Source: an uncultured Clostridia bacterium (GTDB taxonomy: Bacteria; Bacillota; Clostridia; Christensenellales; Pumilibacteraceae). Taken from it: 64,000 nt of DNA. The notes beneath the pieces are model-generated. The model did no database searches. It was given only the letters and a program-made list of their open reading frames with translations, and was not told where the DNA came from. The position numbers and the translations under genes are program-made. Below, one piece after another: positions 10,859 to 48,851 of the stretch; positions within the stretch are counted from its first letter, which is position 1, and each line of letters begins with the position of its first letter. The stretch spans positions 47,969 to 111,968 of the forward strand of contig CAMWMF010000002.1 of NCBI GenBank assembly GCA_947175335.1, given 5' to 3'.

Positions 10859-10887
10859 TTGACTTAGCGCAAAAACTATTGTATAAT
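10859..10887 (+). promoter_or_regulatory. sigma70 promoter for tRNA-Leu (TTGACT-17-TATAAT)
   Basis: Near-consensus boxes ending 17 nt before the tRNA start. Confidence 0.8.
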
Positions 10888-10904
10888 CGCAGTGTAATAT
10901 GACT

Positions 10905-10989
10905 GCGGGGGTGGCGAAATTGGCAGACGCGCAGGTCTCAGAAGCCTGTGGGTAACTCCGTACGAGTTCAAGTCTCGTCCTCCGCACCA
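10905..10989 (+). tRNA. tRNA-Leu(CAG)
   Basis: Acceptor stem GCGGGGG/CCTCCGC, discriminator A and encoded CCA. Anticodon arm CAGGT-CTCAGAA-GCCTG, long variable arm, T-loop GTTCAAG. Confidence 0.95.
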
Positions 10990-11142
10990 AAGCGGCGCTG
11001 TCGCGCCTAATAGAATAAATAAGAGATAAGAAATAATAGATAATAAAGCTGTGGTAAGGCTTTACACGCCGCTTTGTACTATTAAATCTTATCTCTTATT
11101 TTTTATTTATTATTTAATTCTTAATTCTTAATTCTTAATTAT

Positions 11143-11778: not shown

Positions 11779-11935
11779 AACGATTTTCCTTTTTTCTTTA
11801 TTCGAGGAGTATTTTTGCCCGCTTGCGGGAGCAAAAATGCGACGACGACAAATTAGGTTAATACCCGCTGCTTGCAGCGGAAGTGCGCATAGCGCACTGA
11901 CCAGTGCTTGCACTGGAGTATAATACCTAATTTAT

Positions 11936-11964
11936 ATTATATATATTGTGTGTCAATTTGTAAA
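11936..11964 (-). promoter_or_regulatory. Promoter for the flavin reductase-rubredoxin gene (TTTACA-17-TATAAT)
   Basis: Read on the minus strand; implies a leader of about 150 nt. Confidence 0.6.
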
Positions 11965-11984
11965 GTCATATCACCATGTTTTCA

Positions 11985-12013
11985 TTGACTTTTTAGGCAT
12001 AATCGTGTACAAT
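11985..12013 (+). promoter_or_regulatory. sigma70 promoter (TTGACT-17-TACAAT) for activase gene
   Basis: Near-consensus boxes 40 nt upstream of ATG 12054. Confidence 0.7.
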
Positions 12014-12053
12014 TATATGCGTAAAAATTTTGTATTTTGTAGGGTTATAGACA

Positions 12054-27800: not shown

Positions 27801-28207
27801 ATATCCGCGCCGTTATACTTAATAAAAAGGAAATAATCCTCTTTAAGCGATACGCTTACCTTGAAGTTGTACGAAATGCCCTCTTCGGTATAGCTGACCT
27901 TGTATACGCCGAGCTGCGTAGCCGTAACCTTGCCACCCGTAGCGGTAACTTCGTCGCCGTTGGGTGCGGTAACGGTTGCGTCTGCGGGAACGGTAAATTC
28001 ATCGCCGTAGTCGCATTTGTCCTTTACTTTTACGCCTTTGGCAACGTCGACCTTTTCAGAAGTGGTGGGCGTTACCAAATTTTCATCGCCCTCAGCACGA
28101 GCGGCGCGAGGCGCGACAAAAGTAAAGCAAGTGATCAGCATTGCCAGACATACAAACAGCGTCGTGGCAGTCAATCCGATTCTTTTGATTAGTCCGAGTT
28201 TTTTCAT
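24818..28207 (-). CDS. Secreted single-pass surface protein with Ig-like repeats (1129 aa)
   Basis: Signal peptide ending APRAARA, repeated beta-rich units (D..AP.F/I; G.Y.V.Y.A.D) and C-terminal TM followed by RFRKVKK. Confidence 0.85.
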   Translation of the reverse strand: MKKLGLIKRIGLTATTLFVCLAMLITCFTFVAPRAARAEGDENLVTPTTSEKVDVAKGVKVKDKCDYGDEFTVPADATVTAPNGDEVTATGGKVTATQLGVYKVSYTEEGISYNFKVSVSLKEDYFLFIKYNGADIPTYVEKGTQFTLPEASVKYYDENNILRDYPDKDYTIEIADSKNHTYGEDKTFKAEDDGKVFITYTATLGKEGGTKRLTKTFTVNVQSKVNKSGNPSLAVSGMTQTASVNRPVTLPVAKVSDKSDDNVKVVIEVLDPDNNKVNNVKVNDDGYAYETIADDPVQFDNDKTMTFYPTKTGDYKVRYTAYNDFYDEANPSAGGKSGTNEGIIKVADHVAPVFKNTDKYEYLIPEKWGMDVKDEAGKSVDMQGKVKFLIPELVDNKCHMPKDADDKDDLISLYFRITDSENSKTVLSITNILSTGDDGKFTKNDVYTEDATFNNDDKAFVFDFSKYVKKNSKGEAVKSKAGTYTVLFRARDKDNNTSSKTYTITLTDTYEDKNIPNTAEVTAPDYISAADETFTVPYPVYADKEDTRLLVDYRLYTAEDKSIPVKGGEVASLTAKPGYLVINEGKDDEAELELGDNLYYYIGVTDKAGNFRSNAVADDKSYIDVAATPADYTKIAAVTKIIKEAETEGKFAFDGTKIKFVNTAKDSTDTTPIKVGDTVNAGSFVITAANKDMRNYTGFEVAVYDPEGNHVDVTLETLSDVKDDVAKIYVQNIIFTATSAAKAAEGEEEEPAYTMTIRVFDVNGNNDVYGYKLTGVNPSTHGNNQTSAIANVDTKGEVNVKYNLKNSVIKHISEQGDFRVVRKITGGIFSLMGNEFTAKTAQSYRVWDGYINADNINREAGSFNYDDVTQVDIPYSVQVIDDATPVIELQGTMPSYKAKYDAEKGEYSETNGLVKLPTAVAYTQYGMGTVTIDVKDPDGQPVTLDENNQFKADKDGAYKVTFTAVYENGNQEELIETISVGDVFAPKFTVSGGTSTASAKKEGDTFTFKNIELAEGESTDGVTITKQIYDPSHELISGSTVDGTYTSYATKGNNGSEIKLNKVGEYTIVYTAKDAVGNDYKITETLTVTSQGSSTPTTWTTLSTVLIIVAIVLLAGVIIYVVRFRKVKK

Positions 28208-33895: not shown

Positions 33896-33972
33896 TTTAT
33901 CACCTGTATGTAGTATTTAACTTAATCATTGTACCATACAAAGATTGATTAGTCAATTATGAATTCGGCATT

Positions 33973-34003
33973 AAAAAAGCCCTGTCATAAGACAAGGCTT
34001 TTT
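33973..34003 (-). terminator. Terminator of lipoprotein 1 (AAAAAAGCCCTGTCATAAGACAAGGCTTTTT)
   Basis: Stem with A/U tails; near-identical copies at 35809, 37817 and 41418. Confidence 0.85.
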
Positions 34004-34019
34004 GATTGTGGTTGTTGTT

Positions 34020-35288
34020 TTATGCCGGAGTGACCGTGACTTTTTCTCCGTCAAACGAGAATGTGTATGTGCCCGATTCAATTACCCAGAAGTTATCGTC
34101 ACCCGGATACTTGGTGTAACCGGCGTCGGCATTAGCTACCCAGCTTGTGCCGCTACCGTCGCTTGTTCCGCCGTTACGAATTTTCAACCAACCTGTATTG
34201 GTTACGTACACAGTAGCTGTCCAAACACTGCCGTTTTGGATAAGCTCTACGCCGTTACCCCAACCGCCGCCGGGAATACCTTCGCCTACGAGCCAAACGC
34301 CGGACGACCCGATTGGTTTCACATCGTCGCTTACATCACCGCCGCCACCGCCGCCGGGAATGCCTGCCCAAATTTGCCACTTGTTGCTGCCGTTGGTGGA
34401 ATCTTCTTCAGACTGCTTAATGGATACCGTGTACGTGCCGGCTTCGGTTACGGTGACTTCCGGCAGATTGCCGGTTACGTCGATATTCGTACCTTTTTCT
34501 TCAAGCTTAGCGCCTGCGTCTACCCATACAACAGCTATGGTTACGCCTTCAAGACTGAACTTAAGTTTATCACCGGCCGAAAGCGTAATGTTCTCGGCGT
34601 AATAATCGTAAGCCAAGCCTTCCGTAGAACCCACAGAAAGAGTAGCAACTACGTTGTTGCCAACATAAACTTTGTTGCCGCCTTCCTGTTGTACGCCACC
34701 CGTGTACTGTGCGTACAGCGTAGTATTCTTATCGAATACCGTTTCCAAAGTTACGGCAGTGCCGCCGGTTGACTCAGTGTACCAGCCGTTGAACGTGTAA
34801 CCGCTATTTGCCGTAACGCGGGGCAGGCTTGTAAGCTTGCCGTTTGTCGTTTGCACGTAGTTGGGCGTTAGCGACATTGTGCCGTCAGTGCCTACCATAA
34901 ACGTTATGGTGTATTCCGTGCCCGGCGTCGTGCCGTTATCGGTATAACGTGCATAAATCGAGCTGTTTTTGGTGAACGTCGTGGCGGTAGTTACTTTGGT
35001 GCCGCCAGTAGCAGCGTCGTACCATGCGTCAAACTTTTTGCCGTTGGGCGCCGTAGGCGTGGGCAAAGTGGAAAGCTTGCCGTTTGTCGTCTGCGCCGTA
35101 GCAGGCGTGCCGGTGCCCTCACCGTACACGAACGTTATGGTGTATTTGCCTGTGGTTGTGGTCGGGTCGTTGCCGCCGCCACCACCCAGAATGTCACCGG
35201 CGTCTTTGTCGCACGCGACAAAACCGAATGCCGCAAGTACGAACATTGTTGCGGCAAGTACCGCGATCAGGAGTCTTGATTTCTTCAT
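34020..35288 (-). CDS. Surface lipoprotein 1: 2 InlB-B/Listeria-Bacteroides repeats + SusE/F-like modules (422 aa)
   Basis: Lipobox FVA-C; two YTITF...GKLxxLP...FxxWY...GG...IYAxY repeats; C-terminal module WLVGEGIPGGGW. Confidence 0.85.
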   Translation of the reverse strand: MKKSRLLIAVLAATMFVLAAFGFVACDKDAGDILGGGGGNDPTTTTGKYTITFVYGEGTGTPATAQTTNGKLSTLPTPTAPNGKKFDAWYDAATGGTKVTTATTFTKNSSIYARYTDNGTTPGTEYTITFMVGTDGTMSLTPNYVQTTNGKLTSLPRVTANSGYTFNGWYTESTGGTAVTLETVFDKNTTLYAQYTGGVQQEGGNKVYVGNNVVATLSVGSTEGLAYDYYAENITLSAGDKLKFSLEGVTIAVVWVDAGAKLEEKGTNIDVTGNLPEVTVTEAGTYTVSIKQSEEDSTNGSNKWQIWAGIPGGGGGGDVSDDVKPIGSSGVWLVGEGIPGGGWGNGVELIQNGSVWTATVYVTNTGWLKIRNGGTSDGSGTSWVANADAGYTKYPGDDNFWVIESGTYTFSFDGEKVTVTPA

Positions 35289-35373
35289 ATTTCCCTCATG
35301 AAAAAAATTTTTTTAGCAAACACTCAAAAAGAAAACATCTATCCCTTTTTATGCGTTTACTACTGTATTTGTT

Positions 35374-35402
35374 ATTATATCACTACTTGTATAATATGTC
35401 AA
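35374..35402 (-). promoter_or_regulatory. sigma70 promoter of lipoprotein 1 (TTGACA-17-TATAAT)
   Basis: Perfect consensus. Confidence 0.8.
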
Positions 35403-35557
35403 TACCCAAAAAGAAAAATTTCGACTAAATTTTTACCTACTTCTTTTGGAAAAGAAGTAGGCAAGAAAACTTTTAGTGTTGTGTATTTACTTAGTTATTT
35501 GTTTTACTTTTCGCCCAATCAATTACGTGACAATACATATTGCTTGACGCCTCTATG

Positions 35558-35809
35558 TAATTATGAATGCAGAATGCAGAATTATGGATGGTAATAACAA
35601 AACATGTTTGCGGCGGTTCGCCTAGATTTCTCGACAAGCTCGAAATACCTTCGTTGCTTCGTAGGATGGCATTATGGCTTTGTCTTTTCGAATAGCTATG
35701 CTGTTTACCCATCACCCCGACCAACGCGGAGGGGTCTAGGCGTAGCCGCACAATTCTTAATCTTATCCTTATTTTTAATTCCGAATCCCGAATTCATAAT
35801 TCCGAATTA
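35558..35809. repeat. Heptamer-armed palindromic element, core type A with flipped shell (copy 3)
   Basis: Arms AATTATGAATGCAGAATGCAG / CCGAATTCATAATTCCGAATTA; same core orientation as copies 1, 2 and 4. Confidence 0.88.
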
Positions 35810-35839
35810 AAAAAGCCCTGTCATAAGACAGAGCTTTTT
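35809..35839 (-). terminator. Terminator of lipoprotein 2
   Basis: AAAAAAGCCCTGTCATAAGACAGAGCTTTTT. Confidence 0.85.
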
Positions 35840-35855
35840 GTATCGATTACTTATA

Positions 35856-37718
35856 CTATTTATTCAAAAAAATGTCGCCTGTGGTCGGGTTGAAGAAAAT
35901 GTTGTAAACATTCCCTTCCTTGAACACAATGTTGCCGTCGGCGTCCGTTTCCACCCAATCCTTATTGCCCCATTCGGCATGGACGTTGGCATAACCGTAC
36001 GACTGGCCGCCGAAAACGATTTTTACCTTGCCGCCCGCTTCGACGGTAAAGCCTTTAACTATGTATTCTTCGGTCGGTTTCTCGGGGTTTGGTATCATCT
36101 CGTAGCCGTTGTCGCCGTCAAACTCCTCGCCGATAAACCCGCCGACAAGATAATACTTGCTGCTGTCCACCGCGCCGTAGGTGTAGCCGTCTATATCCTT
36201 GGTAGGCTCGGGCTCTTCTACGTCGGAGATTATTTCAATCTTGCCGTTAACAAGCTTTATCTTATAAGTGCCTGCGATATTGAGTACGAAATTACCGTCG
36301 CCGTCGGTGGTAACGTAACCCTTGCCCTCAACAATATCACTCCTGCCGAGCGCGCTGTCCCAATCTATACCGCCCGTTATATTAGCGCATTTAACCAACT
36401 TAAATTTAACGGGCTCCTCGCCGACAGTCAAATCTTTTTCGCCAGAGGTCTCGCCCATATATCCGTCCTCGGTACAGCTCCCCCACTGAAGGAATTCTGC
36501 ACCCTCGCCGACAATATAGTAGTGATTTTTAAAAATCTTGATATCGGGCTCTTCCAATTCTGAGGTTATTTCGATCTTGCCGTTTTTAAGCGTTATCGTA
36601 TAGGTACCGGCAGTTTTGAGTATAACGTTATTGTCGCCGTCTGAAGAAATGTATCCGAGGCCGGCGGCTACACTGTTCACGTCGAGTACGCTGTCGTCCC
36701 ACAATATAGCGCCACTCTTGCCGTTTGCGCACTTGGCAAGCTTGAACGACACAGCGGCACTGCCGACAGTCAGTTCGATACTGCCCGAGGTCGCGCCTAT
36801 ATACCCGTCTGCCGAGCATTCGTTCCAACCGAAGCCTGCGCCTACAAGATAGAAGTGGTTTGCTTGGAAAGGTATCGTACCGTCGTCGGCTTCTATTTTC
36901 CAATCGCCGCCTTCGGCATAGTACGCAAGCGTAAAATCAAACGTGCCCTGCTTTGCCGCGGTAAACTCGCCTGTTTTTTCGGTAACAGCCTCCATGCCAA
37001 GCCAAATGGCGCCGCGCTGCGCTTCTATCAATTCTACGTCGACGTAGAACGAAATAGCGTTGCCTTCGTTTAGCTCGACGTGTACGGTATACGCCTGTTC
37101 CGCACCTTCAACCGTTGTCGCCGTAAGCATATGCTTGGTGCTGCCGACATAACAGTAGTTATTGCGCTCGGCTATAGTGGACTTATAACGCGCGTAAATA
37201 GTGCACGATTGATTGAACGTTGTATTGGTGGTGATATACTCGCCGCCCGCTTCCGCCGTGTACCAGCCGTTAAACACGCAGTCTTGCGGCACTGTCGGAG
37301 TAGGCAAGGAAGTGAGCTTGCCGTTTACCGTTTGCGCAGATGCGGGCGTGCCCGATCCGTCGCCGTAATCGAACGTAACAGTAACCTCGCCGGCGCCGGG
37401 CGTATACACGGCATACACGACTTTGTCGTCCGTAAACTTTTGCGACTTGAAATTTATAATAGTGTCATCGCCCTTAGAAAGCGACCAGCCTTGAAAGGTA
37501 TAGTCGGCTTTGCTTGCAGCAGGGATATCGCCTTGAACGAACCCGCTTGCGTCGGTCGTTAAAGTTTTGCTGCCGCTGATCGAACCGCCGTCGGCGTCGA
37601 ACGTAACCGTGTACGTGTTGCCCGTTGAATCGTCGTCGCCGCACGCTACAAGAGCGCAAGCCGCAGTCGTAAACATTGTTGCGGCAAGCGCCGCGACTAA
37701 GAGCTTAGATTTCTTCAT
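35856..37718 (-). CDS. Surface lipoprotein 2: InlB-B repeats + SusE/F-like modules (620 aa)
   Basis: Lipobox LVA-C; two B-repeats; modules FYLVGAGFGW, YYIVGEG...W, YYLVGG. Confidence 0.85.
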   Translation of the reverse strand: MKKSKLLVAALAATMFTTAACALVACGDDDSTGNTYTVTFDADGGSISGSKTLTTDASGFVQGDIPAASKADYTFQGWSLSKGDDTIINFKSQKFTDDKVVYAVYTPGAGEVTVTFDYGDGSGTPASAQTVNGKLTSLPTPTVPQDCVFNGWYTAEAGGEYITTNTTFNQSCTIYARYKSTIAERNNYCYVGSTKHMLTATTVEGAEQAYTVHVELNEGNAISFYVDVELIEAQRGAIWLGMEAVTEKTGEFTAAKQGTFDFTLAYYAEGGDWKIEADDGTIPFQANHFYLVGAGFGWNECSADGYIGATSGSIELTVGSAAVSFKLAKCANGKSGAILWDDSVLDVNSVAAGLGYISSDGDNNVILKTAGTYTITLKNGKIEITSELEEPDIKIFKNHYYIVGEGAEFLQWGSCTEDGYMGETSGEKDLTVGEEPVKFKLVKCANITGGIDWDSALGRSDIVEGKGYVTTDGDGNFVLNIAGTYKIKLVNGKIEIISDVEEPEPTKDIDGYTYGAVDSSKYYLVGGFIGEEFDGDNGYEMIPNPEKPTEEYIVKGFTVEAGGKVKIVFGGQSYGYANVHAEWGNKDWVETDADGNIVFKEGNVYNIFFNPTTGDIFLNK

Positions 37719-37752
37719 TGTTTTCCTCGATAAAAATTATTTGTTGTTAATT

Positions 37753-37781
37753 ATTATACCACTGTAATTTGAATATGTCAA
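37753..37781 (-). promoter_or_regulatory. sigma70 promoter of lipoprotein 2 (TTGACA-17-TATAAT)
   Basis: Perfect consensus. Confidence 0.8.
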
Positions 37782-37784
37782 TAC

Positions 37785-37847
37785 AATTCCGAATTCCGAA
37801 TTCATAATTCCGAATTAAAAAAGCCCTGTCATAAGACAGAGCTTTTT
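37785..37847. repeat. Heptamer arm (solo) abutting terminator of lipoprotein 3
   Basis: AATTCCGAATTCCGAATTCATAATTCCGAATTA followed by a terminator identical to 35809-35839. Confidence 0.85.
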
Positions 37848-37868
37848 GTGTTGATTAGCTGTTACATG

Positions 37869-40800
37869 TTAGGCCTGAACAACGCCGGGCGCAACACTGC
37901 CGCCGCCGACGGCATATGTTATAACCCATACATTTCCACTAATTCCGCTCAAATCTGCGGTTTTAGAAGAATCGCCGCCCTTGTTGATAAGGAACTTAAC
38001 GTTCGACAACGTACCCGTTAGCGTCATTTCCGACGTGATAACCGTACCGGGGTAACCCGCAGTGGCTATACCAGACCATGCATATATACGGAAAGTAGAG
38101 TTATTAGCAAGGTCTACTATATTATCGCCTTCTTTAATATAGAGCTTAATTGATTGCCCATTGACAGTAATGGTTGCGCACTTACCGGCGTCCGCCGCGG
38201 AAATAACTATTGCGTCGCCTATTTCGATTTCCTTTGATATATCTAATTCAACCCAACCGTCTTTGTAAACCTTGTAGTGAATTTCGTAGTTGCCCGCTTC
38301 GAGATCGTAATGGTCGGTACCAGTTTGACCATACTGATTATAACCAAACTTCTCAACGCCGTTAATCTTAAGCGCATTTATATTCCTCACTGCGCCACCG
38401 GTTGCGTTTTGAGCCCAAAGCTTGATTGTGGTAGTTTTTGTAAGCTCTAACTTCACATTGTAATACTCGGCTTCATTTTTTGTGGCATCGGGCGTACCTG
38501 CTGTGAGCTTCGTGAACTCATCGCCGACTTTGATGTACTGTCCGACATCCAAATCGTCAGGATCCTCGGGGCTAGGTCCGGGTTGCTCGCTCGCCGCGAA
38601 GTTAATCCAAACGCTGCTACCGCCGTCCGTACCTATTTTAAGGTAGAACGTGAACGTGCCAGCTTTTAAAGCTTCCAAATTGCTGCCCTTCCAGTCGATA
38701 TTCTCGCCTAAGCAACCTTCCTCAACGTTATTGAAGCTCCATTCGTTTTCTTGGTCGTTGGTTTTGAAGATTTTAACTTGATCGCCGACAGCCAACGGAA
38801 CTTCCACTTTGTACTTTTTCGCAAGTGTTTCATTTGCGTCGGGATCTATTTCTCCGAACTCGTAGCCTTTTTCGGCACTCCACTTGTTATCGCCGCCTAC
38901 GGTGCCGTACAAATAGAACTTGGATTCACCCGGTTGCGGAGGAGGCGTAGGCTCGGTTTCGGTCGTGCCTTCTACCCAAACACGCCAGCCACCTTGCTGG
39001 TCTGCACCGCCGTCGGTGTAATACTGCAAATAGAAGTCGTACGTGCCGTCTTTCGTTATCGTGAACGATGTCGCTCTGGTGTTCGCGCCGCTTATCGCAA
39101 CGTTCTCTTTCTTTTCAAGCCATACTTCGACTGCCGTGCCATTTATCTTGAAGCTTACCGTATCGTCCTTGGAAAGCGCCATGTCTTTGAGCATGTACTC
39201 TTTCGTCATGGTTTCGTTGATGGGTTCGCCTTGCTCGTTTTCGTGCGAGATGTTGGCAGTGTTATCCGTCATCGTCGTGTCGTTGACTTTCGCTACTTCG
39301 GTTGTAGGTCCGGGAGGAGGCGTAGGCTCGGTTGACGTTGTGCCTTCTACCCAAACACGCCAGCCGCCTTGCTGATCTGCGCCGCCGTCGGTGTAATACT
39401 GCAAATAGAAGTCGTACGTGCCGTCTTTCGTTATCGTGAACGATGTCGCTCTGGTGTTCGCGCCGCTTATCGCAACGTTCTCTTTCTTTTCAAGCCATAC
39501 TTCGACTGCCGTGCCATTTATCTTGAAGCTTACCGTATCGTCCTTGGAAAGCGCCATGTCTTTGAGCATGTACTCTTTCGTCATGGTTTCGTTGATGGGT
39601 TCGCCTTGCTCGTTTTCGTGCGAGATGTTGGCAGTGTTATCCGTCATCGTCGTGTCGTTGACTTTCGCTACTTCGGTCGTAGGTCCGGGAGGAGGGTTCG
39701 GGATGTCGCCGCCCTGCTTTACAAGGTCAACGCGTACCCAGCCGTCGTTATAAACCTTGATGTACGCAATGTACGTTCCCACGGTGGGTACTTTAAGGTT
39801 GCCATTTTCTTCGACAGGCAACGCCACATCGGGAGTGCCGGCAAGGAATGCTTGGTCGAAACCTATCCACGCGCCATCATCCGTGTTATCGTCTTCCCAA
39901 ACCTTAATTTCTTGGTCGGCTTCGGTCGTAGTAAACTCTACCGAATACTGCTCTTTCATATTGTTTGCGGTATCGGCGTCTATTTCAGTAAGCTTAATAC
40001 CGTCGCCCCAATTGTTCATGCCACCTTTCAAGTAAAGGTTGCGGTCACCCTGAGGAGGATCGATAGGGCCGGGGCCGGGTTCGCCGGGTACGCCTATCCA
40101 TACGCAGTACTCGCCGTTTGCGACTTGGTTGTCGTACTGGCATACAGTTACTTGATATACACCACCGAGTTTGACAGTAATGGTATTGGGTGTGCCTTGC
40201 GTTAATTCAAGCGTATCGCTGCTTCCACCGTCAAGCCACATTTGAACGTTAGCGTTGTTCTCAACGGTAAACGTAAGTACCTGACCGGTAGTGAACGTAA
40301 TATTGTACGCCGCCCATTCTTTTTCGCGCGTGGGGAATTCTTGCTTGTTAGGCGTAACTTGTTCCAAATTGGTAAGAAGCGTGCCGTCGGCATAGACATC
40401 GTTGCCCGTTGCTTCAAGCGTAGGTCCGGGGCCGGGTGTTACTTTTTCGACATACTGTGCCGTGACCGAAGTCGATTTTGTGAACGTGGTGTATGACGTG
40501 ACCTGATTGCCGTCGGCGTCTTTCCAGCCCGTCCATTCCCAACCGTCATTGGCGGTGACCGTAGGGAACGTTTTTACTTTTCCGTTTTCCGTCTTTACGG
40601 ACGTTTCGCCGCTGAGCGTGCCGTTCTCGCCCGCAAGGAACGTGATGTCGTATTCATCGGTGACAATGGGTCCGGGAGGCGTAGGGGTATCATTTTCTTT
40701 GAATACCGCGTAAACGGAAATACTTGCGTCAAACTTATGATTGTTGAAAGTATTTGACGTAATAGTCGGAACGGTTTGACCCGCCGCAAGTCCCCAGCCC

Positions 40801-41084
40801 AAGAACGTATAGTCGTCCTTGTTCTCTTTCTTTTCCGCCTCGGGCATTGTGCCCTCCAGCTTGCCGTCCTTGTTGGTTGTCAACGAGTTGCCCTGGATTT
40901 TGGTGAGCTGAGCGTCGGCGCCCGGTACAAACGTAATAGTATACGACGTGTCCGTAGGCGTGTTGCCCGGTTGTACACCACCGGTCGGCAATTCAACACC
41001 GTCGCCGCACGCTACCAATGCGCCCGCCGACGTTGCAAACACCGCTGCTGCCAATGTCGACAACAATAATTTGCGTCTTTTCAT
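37869..41084 (-). CDS. Surface lipoprotein 3: InlB-B repeats + multiple SusE/F-like modules (1071 aa)
   Basis: Lipobox LVA-C; Pro-rich linkers; modules LYLKGGMNNW, FYLYGTVGG..KW; internal 125-aa duplication. Confidence 0.85.
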   Translation of the reverse strand: MKRRKLLLSTLAAAVFATSAGALVACGDGVELPTGGVQPGNTPTDTSYTITFVPGADAQLTKIQGNSLTTNKDGKLEGTMPEAEKKENKDDYTFLGWGLAAGQTVPTITSNTFNNHKFDASISVYAVFKENDTPTPPGPIVTDEYDITFLAGENGTLSGETSVKTENGKVKTFPTVTANDGWEWTGWKDADGNQVTSYTTFTKSTSVTAQYVEKVTPGPGPTLEATGNDVYADGTLLTNLEQVTPNKQEFPTREKEWAAYNITFTTGQVLTFTVENNANVQMWLDGGSSDTLELTQGTPNTITVKLGGVYQVTVCQYDNQVANGEYCVWIGVPGEPGPGPIDPPQGDRNLYLKGGMNNWGDGIKLTEIDADTANNMKEQYSVEFTTTEADQEIKVWEDDNTDDGAWIGFDQAFLAGTPDVALPVEENGNLKVPTVGTYIAYIKVYNDGWVRVDLVKQGGDIPNPPPGPTTEVAKVNDTTMTDNTANISHENEQGEPINETMTKEYMLKDMALSKDDTVSFKINGTAVEVWLEKKENVAISGANTRATSFTITKDGTYDFYLQYYTDGGADQQGGWRVWVEGTTSTEPTPPPGPTTEVAKVNDTTMTDNTANISHENEQGEPINETMTKEYMLKDMALSKDDTVSFKINGTAVEVWLEKKENVAISGANTRATSFTITKDGTYDFYLQYYTDGGADQQGGWRVWVEGTTETEPTPPPQPGESKFYLYGTVGGDNKWSAEKGYEFGEIDPDANETLAKKYKVEVPLAVGDQVKIFKTNDQENEWSFNNVEEGCLGENIDWKGSNLEALKAGTFTFYLKIGTDGGSSVWINFAASEQPGPSPEDPDDLDVGQYIKVGDEFTKLTAGTPDATKNEAEYYNVKLELTKTTTIKLWAQNATGGAVRNINALKINGVEKFGYNQYGQTGTDHYDLEAGNYEIHYKVYKDGWVELDISKEIEIGDAIVISAADAGKCATITVNGQSIKLYIKEGDNIVDLANNSTFRIYAWSGIATAGYPGTVITSEMTLTGTLSNVKFLINKGGDSSKTADLSGISGNVWVITYAVGGGSVAPGVVQA
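38940..39695 (-). repeat. Intragenic tandem duplication, 375-bp period
   Basis: Two near-identical units (PGPTTEVAKVNDTTMTDN...GGWRVWVEGTT) with only a few nucleotide differences. Confidence 0.95.
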
Positions 41085-41138
41085 TTTTTCCCTCTCTATG
41101 AAAATAATTTGTTAGGTACAGTACTCCTAAGTGTATTA

Positions 41139-41167
41139 ATTATACCACCAAGAAGTACTGTTGTCAA
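41139..41167 (-). promoter_or_regulatory. sigma70 promoter of lipoprotein 3 (TTGACA-17-TATAAT)
   Basis: Perfect consensus. Confidence 0.8.
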
Positions 41168-41204
41168 TACATTATATGAAAAAAATTTACATAGTTTTAC
41201 TGTA

Positions 41205-41418
41205 TAATTCGGAATTCGGAATGCAGAATGCGGAATTAAAGCCCTAATCCGACTGCGCCATAGGCGCAGCCACCACCCCATACCCCCAAGGGAAGGTTAT
41301 CAGTGGTACAGCTTATCCACGTGATGACCTTCCCCGTGGGGGAAGGGTGACCACGAAGTGGTGGATGAGGGGCGACCTTTTTGATAATTCCGAATTCATA
41401 ATTCCGAATTCCGAATTA
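41205..41418. repeat. Heptamer-armed element, core type B
   Basis: Same arms; core ACCTTCCCCGTGGGGGAAGGGTGACCACGAAGTGGTGGATGAGGGGCGA is the near reverse complement of 52948-52997. Confidence 0.88.
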
Positions 41419-41452
41419 AAAAAGCCCTATCTCTTTTGAGATAAGGCTTTTT
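41418..41452 (-). terminator. Terminator of lipoprotein 4
   Basis: AAAAAAGCCCTATCTCTTTTGAGATAAGGCTTTTT. Confidence 0.85.
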
Positions 41453-41477
41453 GATTGTTTGTTTTTATGCGAAACGT

Positions 41478-44400
41478 TTATGCTTGTTTTGCTATAAAGG
41501 GCAAATCCCAGGAGTATCCTTCGCCGTTTTCATCGCCATTCCAGTTGATATCTTTTTCTTCACCATTTACAATTTCTTTTGTCCAAGTATCAAAAGTAAA
41601 TGTGTAGTTGTTTCCTCCGGTGAAGTTGCCGGTAATGTCATTGCACTTAGCTACTTGTTCTTGCTTCCAGCCGTCTTGCCTGAATGTAATTACAATACCC
41701 TTGACAGGACCCCTACTATCCAAAGTGAGAGTGTAGGTAAACGTTCTGCCGTCACCTGTCATAAGCTCACCACCGTTGACACCGTTATCACGGTCAGTGT
41801 TCCACGTTGTGTAGCTTGTGTTATCATCAACAAACAAGTGAATGCGCACGTCTTTGATATTACTTTCGTAATTGTCCCCGAGACTGAACGTAAACGTTAT
41901 TTGAGATGATTGCTGTTCGCCACCGCCGCCGCCTTGGTTTTCGCCGTTCGGTTTGGTTGCGGAGTAATCGACCCATAACCAGTCGCTACCCCAATCCGGC
42001 TTAAAGTGGAACCTGTAATATCCGTTTGTGTTGATTAAGATACTGCCCTCGTCGGCGCCTGTCTTTGCGGAAATATGACCGCCCTCGATTGCAGGAGCAA
42101 CGCCGTTATATCCGCCGTTGGGAATTGCGTTAAAGTCGCCCTTGTCGTCACTTCCGCCATAACGAACTTTAACGGTGTCACCCGCTTTGAGGTAGATATA
42201 ATTCAGCTCGTACTGTCCGTCGTTGAGAGTCATGTAATAGCCGTTTTGCCAATCGAACGACGCCATTTGTCTGCCCGTAAACTTACCGGTAAGGATTGCT
42301 ATTCCGCGTTCGGTGCCCGAAGTTCCATTCTCATAAATAGAACCGTAGGTGAAGCCGTCGTTAACGGTGTCGGGAGTGGGCGGAGGCGTGGGATTGTCGA
42401 GCGTACCGTTAATCCATACCTTCCAGCCTTCGCCGATATAGTACTTCAAATGGAACTCAAACGTACCTGCCTTAGGCATGGTGAACTCGATGCCCATTGT
42501 GTTATCGCCGCTTACGCCGCCGTTTATCAGCTGGCTACTCACCCTGAACAAGCACGAAACTTCCTGATCGTTTACGTAGAATTTGATTTTGGAATTGTCC
42601 GCAAGCTGAACGTTTTGTGCAACGTACCACTTGACCAATTTATCCTTATCCTTGTCGTTGTCGATTTTTGTTTGATCATTAGGCATTGCCGTGTTGTTCA
42701 TTCTGGCCGTAGCAGTGGCTGCGGGCTGCGGCGCGACGTAGAATACGCGAACACTGTTGCTGCCGTCTTTATGCATCCTGAGATACACGGTGTAATTACC
42801 TGCTCTCTTGATCTTGATATTGCCGTCGGGAGTCTTTTCGCAGTTTACGCCGACCGAGCCTTCCTCGAAATTGCTGTAATTCCAAGCGTTACCGTCGTTC
42901 GATTTGAATATTTTGACCTCGTCGTTAACACTCAAAGTGGCTTCCGCTTTGTATTTTACTTCTACCTGACCGTCCTCGTAGGGATTGAGCTCGGTCTCGA
43001 CGAATTTAATGCCGCCCGCCGATATGCTCCACTTGTTAACTCCGCCGATTTTGCCGAACAGATAGAAGTTGGAGCCTTCGTCGTCGTTGTTACCGCCGCC
43101 GCCGACCTTGGAAATCCAAATGTCGTGCGAGCCTGCACCGTTGCCCTCGCCGTATATTTTCAGGTAGAAGTTATACGTACCTTCTTCGACGATAGTAATA
43201 TTGCCTGCGTCGTTGGTGTATCCGCCGCCGGTTGCGACGTCTTCAGGCACTGCGGGCTCTTCTTGAAGGTGCGCGTAATACGTACCGTTGAGCCAGAATT
43301 TAATTTGCTCGCCTGCGGACACCGTTACGTTTTCCGCCGCATATTCGGTGCAATAATCATTATCCGGGTTAATCACAAGCGGATGCTCGCCGTCCGCCGG
43401 ATCCCAGTGTCCTTCGCCGCCGATGCCCAATACGTACGCGCCGGTAACTTCCTCGCCGCCACCGCCGCCGCCTTTCTTGGCAACGTAGACGGAAGTATCG
43501 TTGGGATCCTCTTTATTTACTTTGAGGTAAATTTCGTACGTGCCGTCTTGCGTTATCGTAAGGTTGCCTTTGTTCGCGGTTTCGGAAGTGTCTATATCGG
43601 CAAAGTCCCAGTTCTCTTCCCAAGAGCTGATATATTGCGTCTTGTTGCCTTTTACGATTTTAATCGTATCGTTTGCTTTAAGCTCGGCGGTGAGCAAGTA
43701 TTGATCCTTGCCGTAGCTGTCCTCTGTCTTTGTAAACACATACTTCGCGTCGGTATCTACACCCCACTCTGTTATGGACCCGATAAGGTAGTATGTATCG
43801 GCGTCAATGTTGGGATTGTAGTTTTCGTCTTCCTTGTAGTGCGCCGTGACGGAAGTGATTTGCGTGAACGTATAATTTTCGTCCACGTGCGTCGTTTCGT
43901 CGTCGGTAAGCGCCCAATAATCAAGCTTCCAACCGTTGTCTTCCTTAACGGTGGGGAACTTCGATATTTTTTTGCTTGACGTTTGTATTTCGTTTTGGCC
44001 GCTTATGGTGCCGTGCAAACCCGCATAGAACGTAATCTTGTATTCATCGCCGAGAATGGGACCGGGAGGCGTGGGTGTGTCCTTCGGCTTGAATACGGCG
44101 TAAACAGGCGTGTTGCCCGAAAACTCGTGCGCATTGAAGTTGGTTGCAGTGAGCGTCGGCGACGTTGCTCCCGCAGTAAGACCCCAGCCCAAGAACGTAT
44201 AATCGTCCTTGTTCTCGTTCTTTTCCGCAGTGGGCATTGTTATTGCCGTCAGCTTGCCGTTTTTGTCTGTAGTCAACGTGGTGCCGCCGCTGGCAATGCC
44301 TTTTACCGTGGCGCCCTGCCCCGCAACAAACGTGACGGTATACGTTTTGTCAACGGTGCTCGACGGCGGATTTTTGTCGCTGCCCTTCGGCAATTCGACA

Positions 44401-44483
44401 TCGCTGCACGCGGCTAACGCGCCCGCAGCCGTTGCAAATACCGCTGCTGCCACTACCGACAACAATAATTTGCGTTTTTTCAT
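41478..44483 (-). CDS. Surface lipoprotein 4: InlB-B repeats + multiple SusE/F-like modules (1001 aa)
   Basis: Lipobox LAA-C; N-terminus closely paralogous to lipoprotein 3; modules YYLIGSITEW, AYVLGIGGEGHW, FYLFGKIGGVNKW. Confidence 0.85.
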   Translation of the reverse strand: MKKRKLLLSVVAAAVFATAAGALAACSDVELPKGSDKNPPSSTVDKTYTVTFVAGQGATVKGIASGGTTLTTDKNGKLTAITMPTAEKNENKDDYTFLGWGLTAGATSPTLTATNFNAHEFSGNTPVYAVFKPKDTPTPPGPILGDEYKITFYAGLHGTISGQNEIQTSSKKISKFPTVKEDNGWKLDYWALTDDETTHVDENYTFTQITSVTAHYKEDENYNPNIDADTYYLIGSITEWGVDTDAKYVFTKTEDSYGKDQYLLTAELKANDTIKIVKGNKTQYISSWEENWDFADIDTSETANKGNLTITQDGTYEIYLKVNKEDPNDTSVYVAKKGGGGGGEEVTGAYVLGIGGEGHWDPADGEHPLVINPDNDYCTEYAAENVTVSAGEQIKFWLNGTYYAHLQEEPAVPEDVATGGGYTNDAGNITIVEEGTYNFYLKIYGEGNGAGSHDIWISKVGGGGNNDDEGSNFYLFGKIGGVNKWSISAGGIKFVETELNPYEDGQVEVKYKAEATLSVNDEVKIFKSNDGNAWNYSNFEEGSVGVNCEKTPDGNIKIKRAGNYTVYLRMHKDGSNSVRVFYVAPQPAATATARMNNTAMPNDQTKIDNDKDKDKLVKWYVAQNVQLADNSKIKFYVNDQEVSCLFRVSSQLINGGVSGDNTMGIEFTMPKAGTFEFHLKYYIGEGWKVWINGTLDNPTPPPTPDTVNDGFTYGSIYENGTSGTERGIAILTGKFTGRQMASFDWQNGYYMTLNDGQYELNYIYLKAGDTVKVRYGGSDDKGDFNAIPNGGYNGVAPAIEGGHISAKTGADEGSILINTNGYYRFHFKPDWGSDWLWVDYSATKPNGENQGGGGGEQQSSQITFTFSLGDNYESNIKDVRIHLFVDDNTSYTTWNTDRDNGVNGGELMTGDGRTFTYTLTLDSRGPVKGIVITFRQDGWKQEQVAKCNDITGNFTGGNNYTFTFDTWTKEIVNGEEKDINWNGDENGEGYSWDLPFIAKQA

Positions 44484-44534: not shown

Positions 44535-44563
44535 AGTATAGCACCATTAAAAATGGTTGTCAA
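44535..44563 (-). promoter_or_regulatory. sigma70 promoter of lipoprotein 4 (TTGACA-17-TATACT)
   Basis: Near-perfect consensus. Confidence 0.75.
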
Positions 44564-44644: not shown

Positions 44645-44746
44645 GTTTGCGTGGTGATTGATTTTGCATTACGCCCAATCAATATCGTTACTGTATAAAT
44701 TTCTCGACGCCACTTAACAAATTCGGAATTACCTAAAATATTATTA

Positions 44747-44808
44747 AATGAGGGCGCGAAGCGCAGTCCGACATTATTCACTATTATCTATTCACTAACA
44801 AAAAAACC
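44747..44808. repeat. 62-bp direct repeat (left) flanking TA module
   Basis: 61/62 identical to 45490-45551. Confidence 0.9.
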
Positions 44809-44832
44809 GCCGAAGCGGATTTTTTGTTCACA

Positions 44833-45114
44833 TTATTCGAATAAATCGGCATGACTGCCTGTTCTTATCAGCTTTAAAATCAAGCATTCACTATAAATCT
44901 TATAGATAAGCAACCAGTCGGGCTGTATATGACATTCGCGCACGTCTTTGTAATCTTTGGAATTAGACAAAGCATGGTCACGGTATTTATCGGGCAAAGG
45001 CTGCTCATTTGCAAGCAGCGTTATAACCTTTTGCAATTCGGCTATATTGCATCCACGTTTAACGGCAAGCTTAAAATCCTTTTTGAATTGTCCTTGGTAT
45101 TCGATTTTAAGCAT
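44833..45114 (-). CDS. yafQ: Type II toxin, YafQ family mRNA interferase
   Basis: FKKDFK, YRDHAL, RECHIQPDWLLIY, RTGSHADLF. Confidence 0.95.
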   Translation of the reverse strand: MLKIEYQGQFKKDFKLAVKRGCNIAELQKVITLLANEQPLPDKYRDHALSNSKDYKDVRECHIQPDWLLIYKIYSECLILKLIRTGSHADLFE

Positions 45115-45373
45115 ACAAATTCTCCATAAGTGCTTCTACGCTATCAAACGGCCCGTATACGTCGTCGCCGTTTTCCGAATCGGCAATCGCTTGTGCCGTA
45201 ACTTTATTCGGTACGCTACGCGTTACCTCAAACGGAATACCCTGCTCCGCCAACGCCTTTTTAAGATAAATATTAATCGCCGTAGATAAATCCATCCCCA
45301 AATCCGCAAACAATGCCTGCGCTTGCTTTTTTACATCCGCGTCAATACTGATATTGGTAGAAACCTTAGCCAT
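45107..45373 (-). CDS. dinJ: Type II antitoxin, RelB/DinJ family
   Basis: N-terminal RHH (NISID..VK.QA..LF..LG..LS.AI) and GIPF; overlaps yafQ by 8 nt. Confidence 0.93.
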   Translation of the reverse strand: MAKVSTNISIDADVKKQAQALFADLGMDLSTAINIYLKKALAEQGIPFEVTRSVPNKVTAQAIADSENGDDVYGPFDSVEALMENLYA

Positions 45374-45403
45374 AATACACCTCTCATGTTTATTTATGTT
45401 GCT

Positions 45404-45432
45404 ATTCTAACATATTATATTCAGTTTGTCAA
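45404..45432 (-). promoter_or_regulatory. Promoter of dinJ-yafQ (TTGACA-17-TAGAAT)
   Basis: Read directly. Confidence 0.75.
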
Positions 45433-45489
45433 TACGTTATGCACATAAAATGCGCAGAAACAATTCGGAATTATTTAGAAAAATCATTC

Positions 45490-45551
45490 AATGAGGGTGC
45501 GAAGCGCAGTCCGACATTATTCACTATTATCTATTCACTAACAAAAAAACC
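45490..45551. repeat. 62-bp direct repeat (right) flanking TA module
   Basis: AATGAGGGTGCGAAGCGCAGTCCGACATTATTCACTATTATCTATTCACTAACAAAAAAACC. Confidence 0.9.
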
Positions 45552-46651: not shown

Positions 46652-48043
46652 TTAGTTGTTGCCGCCGATATAGTTTGCGAGCTTATCGGCATATACTTCC
46701 AAAAGCTGGCACGACGTCATGCTTGACATATTAGTAAGCTTGTAGTTGACAAACATATAGCTTTGGCATGTGCCGTATGCTTGATTTATAGCGTCGTGGT
46801 TATTTCCGAGGTTGACGCTGTTGTAGTATAACAGCATTTCCATATACCACAGCTTTCTCGACACGTCGGACAACGTTCGCAACCAGTACAGCTGGTGCAG
46901 CTTGCCGTTTTCTTCCGGCGGTATCGCTTCATCCGTCACCGCCCACTGCGCATAGCGCGAAAAACTGCCGAGCTGGCTGTACAACCGAGTAAAGCCGTTG
47001 GACGTTTCCGTAACCTCTTTAAGCGGCATTATAAACAACGAAAATTCGTCGCCGTCCAGCTTGTCGCCGTAGTTTTGGCGTATATATGTTTCGCTGAGCA
47101 CGGGAATTTTGGATTCGCTGTCGCGCTTGCTCAAATCGGTTTCTACGCCGATACGCATAAACTCGATATCCAAGTACGCGCCGAGCTGCGCTATATAATC
47201 CACGTATTCGTCCATTCTTTGCACGGTCGGTGTGTCCAACGCGCTATCGCTATACGTATTGGAAAGCGTGCTGAGATCTATCATTACGCCGTCGGTATAT
47301 CTATGATTGTTGTGTGTAATTCTATTTGTAATGCCAAGCACCGCACGAGCGCGGTAATTAAGCACGTGCATGTCATGCTCATAGCTGTATACGGCAGGTC
47401 GCACCGCCGCCGGCACACTGGCTATGTTCTCACTGTCCTTTACGAGCGTAACGGCGCTAAGTCCGCTTAACGACAGGTACATCCTTGTGTACTTTTCCAG
47501 CCGCTCGGCGTAATACTTAGTGCGTACGTCGTCGCCCGCTTTCAGGCTTTCGATCATCAGCTTGTCCGAAAGATTGTTGCATACATACAGCGCTTCCATA
47601 AAGTCGTCGTTGGTAAGCGCCGGCGTAGACGTAAGCACCGGCATATTACCGTCGCTATCCACGTAGTCCGCCGTGTGCGTGCCGTCCGTCGATTTGTGGC
47701 TTTTCAGCTCGCGCGAAATATACTTTTCGCCAAAATCCACAGCACGTTCGCTAAGCCCCATCGAATTGAATAACCGCATGGAAGTAAGCGGAAGCGCGAA
47801 CGCGATAATACACGCTAACATCGCTATCAACGAAAGCGCGATAAATGTTGTTTTGAATATTGCGGAAATTAAATCGTCGGCAAACGAGTTTCCGACTTCC
47901 TCCGCAGGCTCGACAACGGGCTTAGGCGCAGGCTCGCGCGCAGGCACGATTTTAGGCATAACTTCATTATCGGCGTCGGTATTGGCGCCTGTTCTGCCAT
48001 TTATGCTGTCACCGTTTTTCAGTTGTTCATCCGAGTAATTCAT
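46652..48043 (-). CDS. Hypothetical membrane-anchored protein
   Basis: Long ORF with one N-proximal TM (FIALSLIAMLACIIAFALPL). Start MNYSD at 48043 is chosen over 48094, which lies in a repeat arm; start is uncertain. Confidence 0.75.
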   Translation of the reverse strand: MNYSDEQLKNGDSINGRTGANTDADNEVMPKIVPAREPAPKPVVEPAEEVGNSFADDLISAIFKTTFIALSLIAMLACIIAFALPLTSMRLFNSMGLSERAVDFGEKYISRELKSHKSTDGTHTADYVDSDGNMPVLTSTPALTNDDFMEALYVCNNLSDKLMIESLKAGDDVRTKYYAERLEKYTRMYLSLSGLSAVTLVKDSENIASVPAAVRPAVYSYEHDMHVLNYRARAVLGITNRITHNNHRYTDGVMIDLSTLSNTYSDSALDTPTVQRMDEYVDYIAQLGAYLDIEFMRIGVETDLSKRDSESKIPVLSETYIRQNYGDKLDGDEFSLFIMPLKEVTETSNGFTRLYSQLGSFSRYAQWAVTDEAIPPEENGKLHQLYWLRTLSDVSRKLWYMEMLLYYNSVNLGNNHDAINQAYGTCQSYMFVNYKLTNMSSMTSCQLLEVYADKLANYIGGNN

Positions 48044-48093
48044 TACAAAATAGTATAACACAAAAAACTTAGTCACACAAGTATTTTGGAGCA

Positions 48094-48209
48094 TAATTCG
48101 GAATTCAGAATGCGGAATTCGGAATTATTGCAAAAATTTATATTACTCTAATAAGGGCGCGTCAGCGCAGTCCGACAATTCCTAATTCATAATTCAGCAT
48201 TCCGAATTA
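48094..48209. repeat. Short heptamer-armed element, core type C (AGGGCGCG..AGCGCAGTCCGACA)
   Basis: Inverted arms; right end overlaps the TAA stop of the upstream lipoprotein gene. Confidence 0.85.
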
Positions 48210-48851
48210 CTTCTTTGCTATCACCTTTGCCGAAACAGGGTCGAGCAACACACCGGTACTGCCGCCGTCCGACGTTAAAAACGACACGTGCCAGCACAAG
48301 CCGTCCGCTCCCAGCGGATTTTTGATTATGCGCGCGCGCGTTTCGTACTCACCTTTGGGATGAATTGCCGTTTTTGCCGCCGATATTGCGCGGTCGTAGG
48401 TAATCATATCGCCTGTGATTTGGCTTTGCACACTGAGCGCGGTCGTTTTGCCGCCGCATTTGATTGTTACTGTAAATTCCTTAGCCGTCGTTTCATGCTC
48501 GAATTCGGCAGAGAAGCTTGCCGCAAACGGGTGGACAATCATAGTGCCGCCGAACGTACAGCCGTCAACCTCGGCGGTGAAAGTGATAACGGCGTCGATA
48601 TCGAAAGTAGTCGGCACGAGCGTGATAAGCGTATACGGCTTTAACTTGCCGTCGCTCCCCACTTTGCCGTCCGCCTTAAAGGTATGCTCGCGCACGCCCG
48701 ACACGGCTGTAAGCGCGTATCCGTCGCCGTCGGCGGAATAAAATCCGCTGCGCCGTTCGCTTACGCTTTCCATCGGATCTGTTCCGCACGAACAAAGTAT
48801 AATCGTCACCACGGTCATTATCGCCGCAAAAAGCATACACAATTTTTTCAT
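48207..48851 (-). CDS. Lipoprotein with C-terminal PepSY-like domain
   Basis: Lipobox LCS-C; C-terminus TYDRAISAAK...WHVSF...VLLDPVSAKVI. Confidence 0.7.
   Translation of the reverse strand: MKKLCMLFAAIMTVVTIILCSCGTDPMESVSERRSGFYSADGDGYALTAVSGVREHTFKADGKVGSDGKLKPYTLITLVPTTFDIDAVITFTAEVDGCTFGGTMIVHPFAASFSAEFEHETTAKEFTVTIKCGGKTTALSVQSQITGDMITYDRAISAAKTAIHPKGEYETRARIIKNPLGADGLCWHVSFLTSDGGSTGVLLDPVSAKVIAKK

Follow-up and report, generated by a model that had tools for sequence, protein, structure and literature searches.

Four tandem SusE/SusF-like lipoproteins, putatively for starch capture, in an uncultured Clostridia bacterium

Starch capture in the gut is understood in two forms, the outer-membrane starch utilization system (Sus) of Bacteroides and the cohesin-dockerin amylosome of Ruminococcus bromii. 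Here, four adjacent lipoprotein genes, LP1 to LP4, are compared with these systems. They lie on the minus strand of a 64,000-nucleotide stretch, hereafter the window (assembly GCA_947175335.1, contig CAMWMF010000002.1, positions 47,969 to 111,968), from an uncultured Clostridia bacterium of the family Pumilibacteraceae. SusE and SusF of Bacteroides thetaiotaomicron (4FEM, 4FCH, and 4FE9; PF16411) are non-catalytic surface lipoproteins with a lipidated N-terminal Cys and a non-binding N-terminal domain, followed by tandem beta-sandwich starch-binding modules (two in SusE and three in SusF). This plan is resembled by LP1-LP4, and SusE/SusF are the best sequence, profile, and fold match of the LP modules. 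The role of SusE/F in holding starch near surface enzymes was shown genetically in B. thetaiotaomicron (PMC4173775), and the affinity of each SusF module is reported to be low, about 300 uM (PMC9112005). SusE/F modules, designated X25, are already known from a Gram-positive host, in Sas20 and Sca5 of R. bromii, whose conserved Trp residues provide a starch platform (PMC9112005), and their presence in a monoderm is therefore less surprising than the title of a preliminary description of this DNA had implied.

The proteins of the R. bromii amylosome (Sas20, Sca5, and Sca3; PMC9112005, PMC4611034) share with the LP system a Gram-positive gut Clostridia host specialized on starch, a genome dominated by glycoside hydrolase family 13 (GH13) (PMC4611034), and non-catalytic starch binders relying on conserved Trp platforms. 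They are assembled through dockerins and cohesins, whereas LP1-LP4 have no Pfam match to either domain and are predicted to be lipid-anchored. The X25 pairs of Sas20 and Sca5 form one clamshell binding site; no R. bromii X25 chain was matched by the module profiles in the PDB, and the CBM74/CBM26 protein Sas6 (7uww) was found only at rank 46 of the fold search (probability 0.06). Unlike Sus, the LPs have no SusC/SusD partner and no polysaccharide utilization locus (PUL), and their stalk consists of Flg_new repeats. They carry up to six X25-type modules per protein, 17 over the four paralogues. Each gene is predicted to be a transcription unit of its own, and the set occupies a housekeeping slot distant from the enzyme genes and differs markedly from strain to strain. 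Since Omp85/BamA is absent, the neighbours are housekeeping genes, and the host belongs to Clostridia, LP1-LP4 are regarded as analogues sharing the Sus binding module and not as Sus members.

From these comparisons and the data below, LP1-LP4 are probably (at roughly 70%) abundant non-catalytic surface proteins for the multivalent capture of starch or related alpha-glucans by a starch-specialist monoderm. They would thus present a Gram-positive, lipid-anchored analogue of SusE/F and of the R. bromii X25 proteins, with starch binding as the presumed function. Already known are the module itself, surface proteins that bind starch without catalysis, and the occurrence of X25 in Gram-positive bacteria degrading starch. 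What is new is the architecture of a lipid anchor, a Flg_new stalk, and as many as six X25-type modules in one protein, together with the placement of the array in a fixed housekeeping slot away from enzyme genes and its cassette-like variation between strains.

The preliminary description, made from the sequence alone, had reported four paralogues of 422, 620, 1071, and 1001 amino acids (aa). Open reading frames (ORFs) were recovered at exactly the coordinates it gave, and all four proteins were related by BLASTP (E 9e-96 for LP3 and LP4, 2e-11 to 9e-42 for the remaining pairs). No further LP copy was detected by phmmer in the whole assembly (1.96 Mb, 52 contigs). Cutting each protein at Gly- or Pro-rich linkers gave 2, 4, 7, and 6 modules for LP1, LP2, LP3, and LP4, respectively (19 in total, about 100-145 aa each), in agreement with the variable string of beta modules between Pro/Gly linkers described earlier. 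In total, 17 of the 19 modules form one superfamily. All-against-all phmmer searches joined 16 of them directly, with E values between non-identical modules down to 1e-32, far beyond chance, and module 5 of LP4 was joined by way of a relative in which the corresponding region matches Pfam SusF_SusE. Modules 2 and 3 of LP2 are close duplicates (E 1e-32). The computed family consensus, Y-L-x-G...W...L-x-x-G-D-x-x-K-I...W...G-N...G-T-Y-x-x-Y-L-K, reproduced the motif proposed from the letters. The C-terminal modules of LP3 and LP4, passed over in that description, are different domains outside the superfamily. No catalytic domain was found in LP1-LP4 by Pfam or NCBIfam, as had been stated.

Two module subtypes were distinguished. 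The Trp type, with an N-terminal Y-L-x-G...W strand, is represented by nine modules in the window, and the other type lacks the first Trp. The Trp-less modules are tied to SusE/F-type modules at E 1e-7 to 1e-14, and their weak Pfam matches to BclA_C, TNF, C1q-like, or PKD/ColH domains all fell under the cut-offs; for these reasons, they were treated as members of the same superfamily.

The likeness to SusE/SusF, proposed at the outset, was borne out at the levels of family, profile, and fold. LP4 matched Pfam SusF_SusE (PF16411) with 31.2 bits against a cut-off of 27.5, at residues 507-598. When modules were scanned singly, two matched this family (E down to 5.8e-6), and most of the individual modules stayed under the cut-off and were linked transitively. 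The relatives P0012 and P0018 scored 46 and 45 bits, respectively. A 16-module profile found SusF 4fe9 as its best PDB match (E 1.5e-4), and so did the 20-module Trp-type profile A7 (E 4.5e-7). The second match of A7 was the dextran-binding surface glycan-binding protein (SGBP) BT3088 (E 2.9e-4), followed by many CBM20 domains of cyclodextrin glucanotransferases (CGTases) and glucoamylase (E 1e-3 to 6e-3). The list also included, at E 0.005-0.009, a few designed WD40-type repeat proteins (nvWRAP-T and variants) without an individually significant stretch; apart from these, nothing unrelated to alpha-glucan was better than E 0.06 in the PDB search with A7. The AlphaFold2 model of LP4 residues 468-585, built from a 43-module alignment, had a mean pLDDT of 85.8 and a pTM of 0.80. 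Foldseek against the PDB placed SusE 4fem and 4fch and SusF 4fe9 as the top three matches with probability 1.00 (TM 0.57-0.59, full-length alignments of 121-122 columns). Probabilities below them did not exceed 0.63, with poor TM, and SusE/SusF were thus the only confident folds. By sequence and predicted structure, the X25-type modules of the LPs are SusE/SusF-type beta sandwiches.

A putative alpha-glucan binding site was recognized in the Trp-type modules. Their alignment shows at least 90% conservation of W18 and K57. At the second Trp position, Trp predominates, and 14 of the 19 window modules retain it. In SusF domain Fa, Trp residues likewise occupy both of these Trp positions. The Trp, Lys, and Trp of the modules also align with LGNW, FKF, and ITWEGG of the CGTase 1a47, which presumably contain the Trp-Lys-Trp of CBM20 binding site 1. 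In the glucoamylase of Aspergillus niger, site 1 is formed by Trp543, Lys578, and Trp590 (PMC9920598). The Trp-type profile and the CBM20 domains of CGTases and glucoamylase (1a47, 1cdg, and 1ac0) can be aligned over some 65-85 residues, with weak similarity (E about 1e-3, 22 bits). Pfam CBM_20 had no match on the modules, and CBM20 domains are usually appended to enzymes. The full triad is kept in seven of the 19 modules, and two-residue remnants occur in LP2 module 4 (Phe-Lys-Trp) and LP4 module 2 (Trp-Lys only). The conserved Trp-Lys-Trp would form a platform for alpha-glucan chains.

The C-terminal modules of LP3 and LP4 had no Pfam or PDB sequence match. The LP3 module, which recurs at the C-terminus of several relatives, carries the motifs YAW...YPG...M...F-x-x-N-K-G-G-D-x-x-K-T-x-D-L. 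Its AlphaFold2 model reached a pLDDT of 82 and found no fold match in the PDB or the viral BFVD. Comparison of its alignment (A4) by hhalign with an alignment of look-alike domains of relatives (A5) gave a probability of 92% (E 6.6e-7, 66 columns); A5 includes residues 380-485 of relative P0072, whose core at 395-457 is Pfam CBM26 (65.8 bits). The LP3 C-terminal module is thus possibly a divergent CBM26-like domain. The LP4 module reached a probability of 45% to the look-alike domains and is missing from the orthologue in a sister genome. A CBM25/26 identity of both modules had been expected from motifs resembling Y-x-W...WPG...M...Q-T-x-D-L; it was left unconfirmed, given no Pfam or PDB sequence match, no fold match for LP3, and profile links alone (92% and 45%).

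The N-termini of LP1-LP4 had been described as a Lys/Arg start with a lipobox Cys in a monoderm. All four begin with MKK or MKR, followed by a hydrophobic stretch and a PROSITE-type lipobox with Cys at position 26. In the alignment with homologues, M1, K2, K5, L23, A25, and C26 are invariant, Cys26 in eight homologues. The genome (94% complete) encodes Lgt (173 bits) and no Omp85/BamA and therefore fits a monoderm that makes lipoproteins. LP1-LP4 are accordingly predicted to be lipid-anchored at Cys26 and displayed at the surface; with a monoderm host, the anchor would be the cytoplasmic membrane and not the outer membrane as in SusE/F. Matches of NCBIfam "lipo-invert tail" on the signal peptide were far under the cut-off and spurious.

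Two InlB-B-type stalk repeats had been assigned to each protein. This holds for LP1 and LP2, where Flg_new (PF09479) scored above its cut-off with 74.4 and 68.5 bits, respectively, in two stretches each. For LP3 and LP4, the Pfam match is confined to the second repeat, a borderline Flg_new_2 (PF18998) with 23.3 and 17.1 bits under a cut-off of 23.6; a first repeat is suggested by their alignment to LP2 (36% identity over residues 1-178, E 3e-25). The stalk was considered as a functional link to the amylases and rejected as uninformative, since 63 Flg_new repeats in about 20 ORFs make it very common in this genome. These ORFs lie on contigs C24, C20, C9, C6, C10, C3, and others, and include products of 3662, 3768, and 3125 aa; the 3662-aa one (C24:6-10991) also has one weak X25-type module (E 4e-4).

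Run against 1.84 billion representative proteins, the module profile matched 262 at E <= 1e-10 and 1565 at the looser limit of E <= 1e-3. Fifty of these relatives, with full-length module matches, were taken into a Pfam census, which detected Flg_new in 22, the starch-binding CBM26 in six, SusF_SusE in five, the glycogen-binding CBM48/AMPK1_CBM in one, and a dockerin in one. CBM26 and CBM48/AMPK1_CBM were the only other recognized carbohydrate-binding domains among the 50, and none had a catalytic domain alongside the module. A GH13 domain fused to modules was sought and not found among the 150 best relatives or in the census. Counting the window's own genome, the module family is present in 12 of 16 genomes of the genus and in two of 85 elsewhere in the family.

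The genomic setting of the array qualifies an earlier claim that no glycosidase or ABC transporter is adjacent. It is correct for the locus: no glycosidase or sugar importer occurs anywhere in the window, whose genes around the array are housekeeping and unrelated ones. For the system, it does not hold. The 1.96-Mb genome contains about nine GH13 genes, four of whose products have lipoboxes, with three architectures confirmed (Table 1). The 950-aa enzyme shares its locus with two further GH13 genes and with genes for two permeases and a lipoprotein solute-binding protein, and a maltodextrin-type ABC locus is present in the genome. Homologues in relatives adjoin such genes. Comparative loci were taken from genomes of the same genus and family; a JGI metagenome scan gave no further ones, and a genome-collection scan gave only two. 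In L013, L014, and L015, the first two from two other genera of the family, lipoproteins with three to four modules have a GH13 gene and a maltodextrin-type permease gene no more than a few kb away. In locus L006 of the same genus (G081; 9830-13837, minus strand), a 390-aa protein with two X25-type modules is encoded 4 bp downstream of the gene for a 945-aa GH13 lipoprotein that is orthologous to the 900-aa enzyme on contig C31 of the window's genome. There, the enzyme gene stops at the edge of C31, and a corresponding partner gene could therefore be absent from the assembly. The GH13 neighbourhoods of relatives support alpha-glucan as the ligand class independently of the fold evidence.

The inferred origin by module shuffling agreed with the comparison of strains, in which the numbers of modules differ between orthologous arrays. 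Nine related genomes of the genus have one to four module lipoprotein genes in the same slot, beside gpsA and then cls or a gene for an aminoacyl-tRNA synthetase (aaRS), and between the orthologous arrays of sister genomes, the number of genes (1-4) and the number and order of the modules vary. Compared with sister genome L001, the flanking proteins are 97-100% identical, and the alignable parts of LP4, LP2, LP1, and LP3 are 81%, 73%, 64%, and 51% identical, respectively. The DNA is mosaic: promoters, signal peptides, stalks, and some module blocks are 91-99% identical, and this identity breaks off abruptly at blocks without any detectable similarity. Modules 5-6 of LP4, modules 1-4 of LP3, and both modules of LP1 had no detectable counterpart in L001. 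LP3 contains an in-frame tandem duplication of a module unit, the copies of which differ at eight nucleotides in seven codons, six of them synonymous. In the 99.9% identical GCA_029050575.1 (L003), one copy of the 375-bp unit is present and the protein has 946 aa; the one- and two-copy states may reflect true divergence between the strains or a repeat collapsed in assembly. Taken together, both parts of the earlier proposal, SusE/SusF-like modules and diversification of the repertoire through module shuffling, were supported.

A working model can be proposed as follows. Expressed as four independent transcription units with near-consensus promoters from a fixed gpsA-cls slot, each LP would be exported and lipid-anchored through Cys26 to the outer face of the cytoplasmic membrane, as the lipobox and Lgt indicate. 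Two Listeria-Bacteroides repeats and the Pro/Gly linkers would distance the rest of the protein from the membrane. Judging from sequence and predicted fold, two to seven SusE/SusF-type (X25) beta-sandwich modules would be displayed per protein, and those with Trp-Lys-Trp would bind alpha-glucan chains, probably with low affinity each. Many modules on four proteins might then provide multivalent adherence to starch or glycogen and keep the substrate and released maltodextrins near the cell. The GH13 lipoprotein amylases/pullulanase and the maltodextrin-type ABC importer, encoded elsewhere, would process and import the glucans. Recombination exchanges, duplicates, and removes the stretches that encode modules, so that closely related strains carry different module sets.

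Several observations weigh against this reading. A SusE/F fold is compatible with more than one ligand: a related PDB match binds dextran, and SusE-like proteins also occur in non-starch PULs (PMC8211771). The Foldseek E values are modest (6e-3 to 1.4e-2, TM about 0.58) and come from one modelled module. In ten of the 19 modules, the triad is partly or wholly missing, and these modules may be spacers or binders of something else. The array's own neighbours are housekeeping genes only, neither C-terminal module has an assigned fold or family, and the Flg_new stalk is common to amylases and LPs and is non-specific. A ligand other than starch on a SusE/F-like scaffold, such as dextran or a bacterial exopolysaccharide, host mucin glycans, or another dietary fibre, would accommodate the second profile match to the dextran-binding BT3088, the incomplete aromatic triads, the lack of an enzyme partner at the locus, and the unassigned C-terminal modules, and the exchange of modules between strains would then mean differing ligand repertoires. 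It appears unlikely, considering that every recognized carbohydrate-binding domain co-occurring in relatives is specific for starch or glycogen (CBM26 and CBM48), that the sequence matches beyond SusF are CBM20 domains with the presumed site-1 triad aligned, that homologues adjoin GH13 genes and maltodextrin-type permeases, and that GH13 genes abound in the genome.

The near-identical flanks around LP genes that retain 51-81% identity to the sister genome, with whole module blocks replaced, could also point to a variable surface coat, in which modules are exchangeable antigenic beads serving as phage-receptor decoys or variants or in evasion of host IgA. The one to four genes in the same slot across the genus, the very strong and independent predicted promoters, and the conservation of signal peptide and stalk with varying distal parts are in line with it. 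The conservation of Trp-Lys-Trp in many modules, however, indicates a retained ligand site, six of the seven differing codons within the 375-bp duplication are synonymous, and the locus gave no sign of an invertible promoter, a silent cassette, or a recombinase. As the main role, a surface coat is judged still less likely than another ligand; it is compatible with starch binding and could act as an added selective pressure. That the LP3 or LP4 C-terminal module is a cryptic catalytic domain is highly improbable. A possible degradative capacity has been attributed to SusE-like Bacteroides proteins (PMC8211771), and the two modules have no fold assignment, but no catalytic family was found by Pfam, NCBIfam, or PDB profile searches, and the modules are presumably beta sandwiches of 118-145 aa, of which the LP3 one is linked by hhalign to CBM26-like domains at 92%. 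Multivalent alpha-glucan capture thus remains the preferred function of LP1-LP4.

The features of the array are listed in Table 1. A GAGG-type ribosome-binding site precedes each LP gene, and the consensus matches of the promoter-like sites suggest four strongly expressed monocistronic units. Elements with AATTCCG heptamers follow the genes; an inverted AATTCCG heptamer arm was also observed upstream of LP3 (41205-41240). These elements could be recombination substrates for cassette exchange.

Table 1. Features of the LP1-LP4 array (positions in the window) and GH13 lipoproteins encoded elsewhere in the genome
Feature	Position	Strand	Description
LP1	34020..35288	-	422-aa lipoprotein; Flg_new repeats at residues 48-116 and 126-196
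LP1 modules			Residues 205-312, without first Trp; 326-422, with Trp-Lys-Trp triad
LP1 promoter-like site	35374..35402	-	TTGACA-17-TATAAT, extended -10 TG, 12/12 matches
LP1 ribosome-binding site			GAGGGAAA ahead of ATG
Element 3' of LP1	33941..34013	-	73 nt; hairpin then T run; most diverged copy, 68% to reference
LP2	35856..37718	-	620-aa lipoprotein; two Flg_new repeats; lipobox Cys26
LP2 modules (n = 4)			Residues 184-284, 285-390, 394-502, 508-620
LP2 promoter-like site	37753..37781	-	12/12 consensus, extended -10
Element 3' of LP2	35777..35849	-	73 nt; AATTCCG heptamer run and terminator-like hairpin
LP3	37869..41084	-	1071-aa lipoprotein; lipobox Cys26; stalk with one Pfam-visible repeat (Flg_new_2)
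LP3 X25-type modules (n = 6)			Residues 222-333, 345-458, 468-583, 593-708, 718-832, 843-953
LP3 distinct C-terminal module	37872..38225	-	Residues 954-1071
LP3 in-frame tandem duplication	38938..39695	-	375-bp (125-aa) module unit
LP3 promoter-like site	41139..41167	-	12/12 consensus, extended -10
Element 3' of LP3	37785..37857	-	73 nt; 96% identical to LP2 copy
LP4	41478..44483	-	1001-aa lipoprotein; lipobox Cys26; stalk; Pfam SusF_SusE match at residues 507-598
LP4 X25-type modules (n = 5)			Residues 225-337, 343-460, 468-585, 588-696, 705-845
LP4 module 3 (modelled)	42729..43082	-	Residues 468-585; predicted beta sandwich
LP4 distinct C-terminal module	41481..41915	-	Residues 857-1001
LP4 promoter-like site	44535..44563	-	11/12 consensus, extended -10
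Shared element 3' of LP4	41386..41458	-	Same heptamer arms, different hairpin
GH13 lipoprotein, 1006 aa			Lipobox, 4 Flg_new, PUD, GH13
GH13 lipoprotein, 900 aa			Lipobox, Flg_new, GH13
GH13 lipoprotein, 950 aa			Lipobox, PUD, CBM48, GH13

The array is flanked on one side by genes for cardiolipin synthase (cls), a class II aaRS, CoaX, an RnlA-like protein, and CTP synthase, and on the other side by a dinJ-yafQ pair, gpsA, and genes for a V-type ATPase. The dinJ/RelB-yafQ pair (44828-45462), located between gpsA and LP4, was found in the window and in L003. It is flanked by 73-nt direct repeats (44736-44808 and 45479-45551, 95% identical), and its lack of a counterpart in the otherwise collinear L001 locus identifies it as an insertion or deletion. 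In L011 (G097, same genus; 2995-7979, plus strand), two more module lipoproteins of 910 and 706 aa are encoded beyond the 480-aa gene and gpsA, besides the one in the usual slot, and this presents a second insertion site for the family. The sole ABC gene of the window (17638-19377, plus strand) encodes a fused exporter-type protein and is adjoined by a gene for a 359-aa HTH_3 (Xre-type) regulator (19434-20513, minus strand), both unrelated to the array. An ORF of at least 3552 aa (3-10658, minus strand) runs past the window start; its sole Pfam match is an ALK/LTK glycine-rich domain (64 bits, residues 91-293), and it is probably a giant surface protein. Pfam matched none of three minus-strand ORFs of 1129 aa (24818-28207), 480 aa (46652-48094), and 214 aa (48207-48851). 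For the 480-aa protein, identity falls from 98% in L001 to 74% in L002, and it thus diverges much faster than its neighbours.

Tentatively, the gpsA-cls slot might be a dedicated diversity locus, in which a conserved "expression and anchoring" head (promoter, signal peptide, lipobox, and stalk, 95-99% identical between strains) is combined with binding-module cassettes that are swapped, duplicated, or deleted in a contingency-like manner; this possibility is considered less likely than not. If it were true, each strain would display its own set of alpha-glucan-binding modules, which could set the starch types or granule surfaces that it colonizes. The strain-specific sets could alternatively stem from phage or IgA pressure. 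Nutrient-capture proteins of a Gram-positive gut commensal would then be under contingency-like variation.

In addition to the two known forms of starch capture in the gut, the array points to a third arrangement, in a Clostridia genus with small, GH13-rich genomes, where X25 modules would be carried on lipid-anchored stalks, encoded apart from the enzymes, and produced from four promoters that are predicted to be strong and independent. The mosaic array between near-identical flanks presents a natural experiment, in which module number and type may be related to substrate preference and strain competition. Moreover, the diverged X25 sequences, many of them invisible to Pfam, could improve the annotation of starch binding in metagenome-assembled genomes of Firmicutes.

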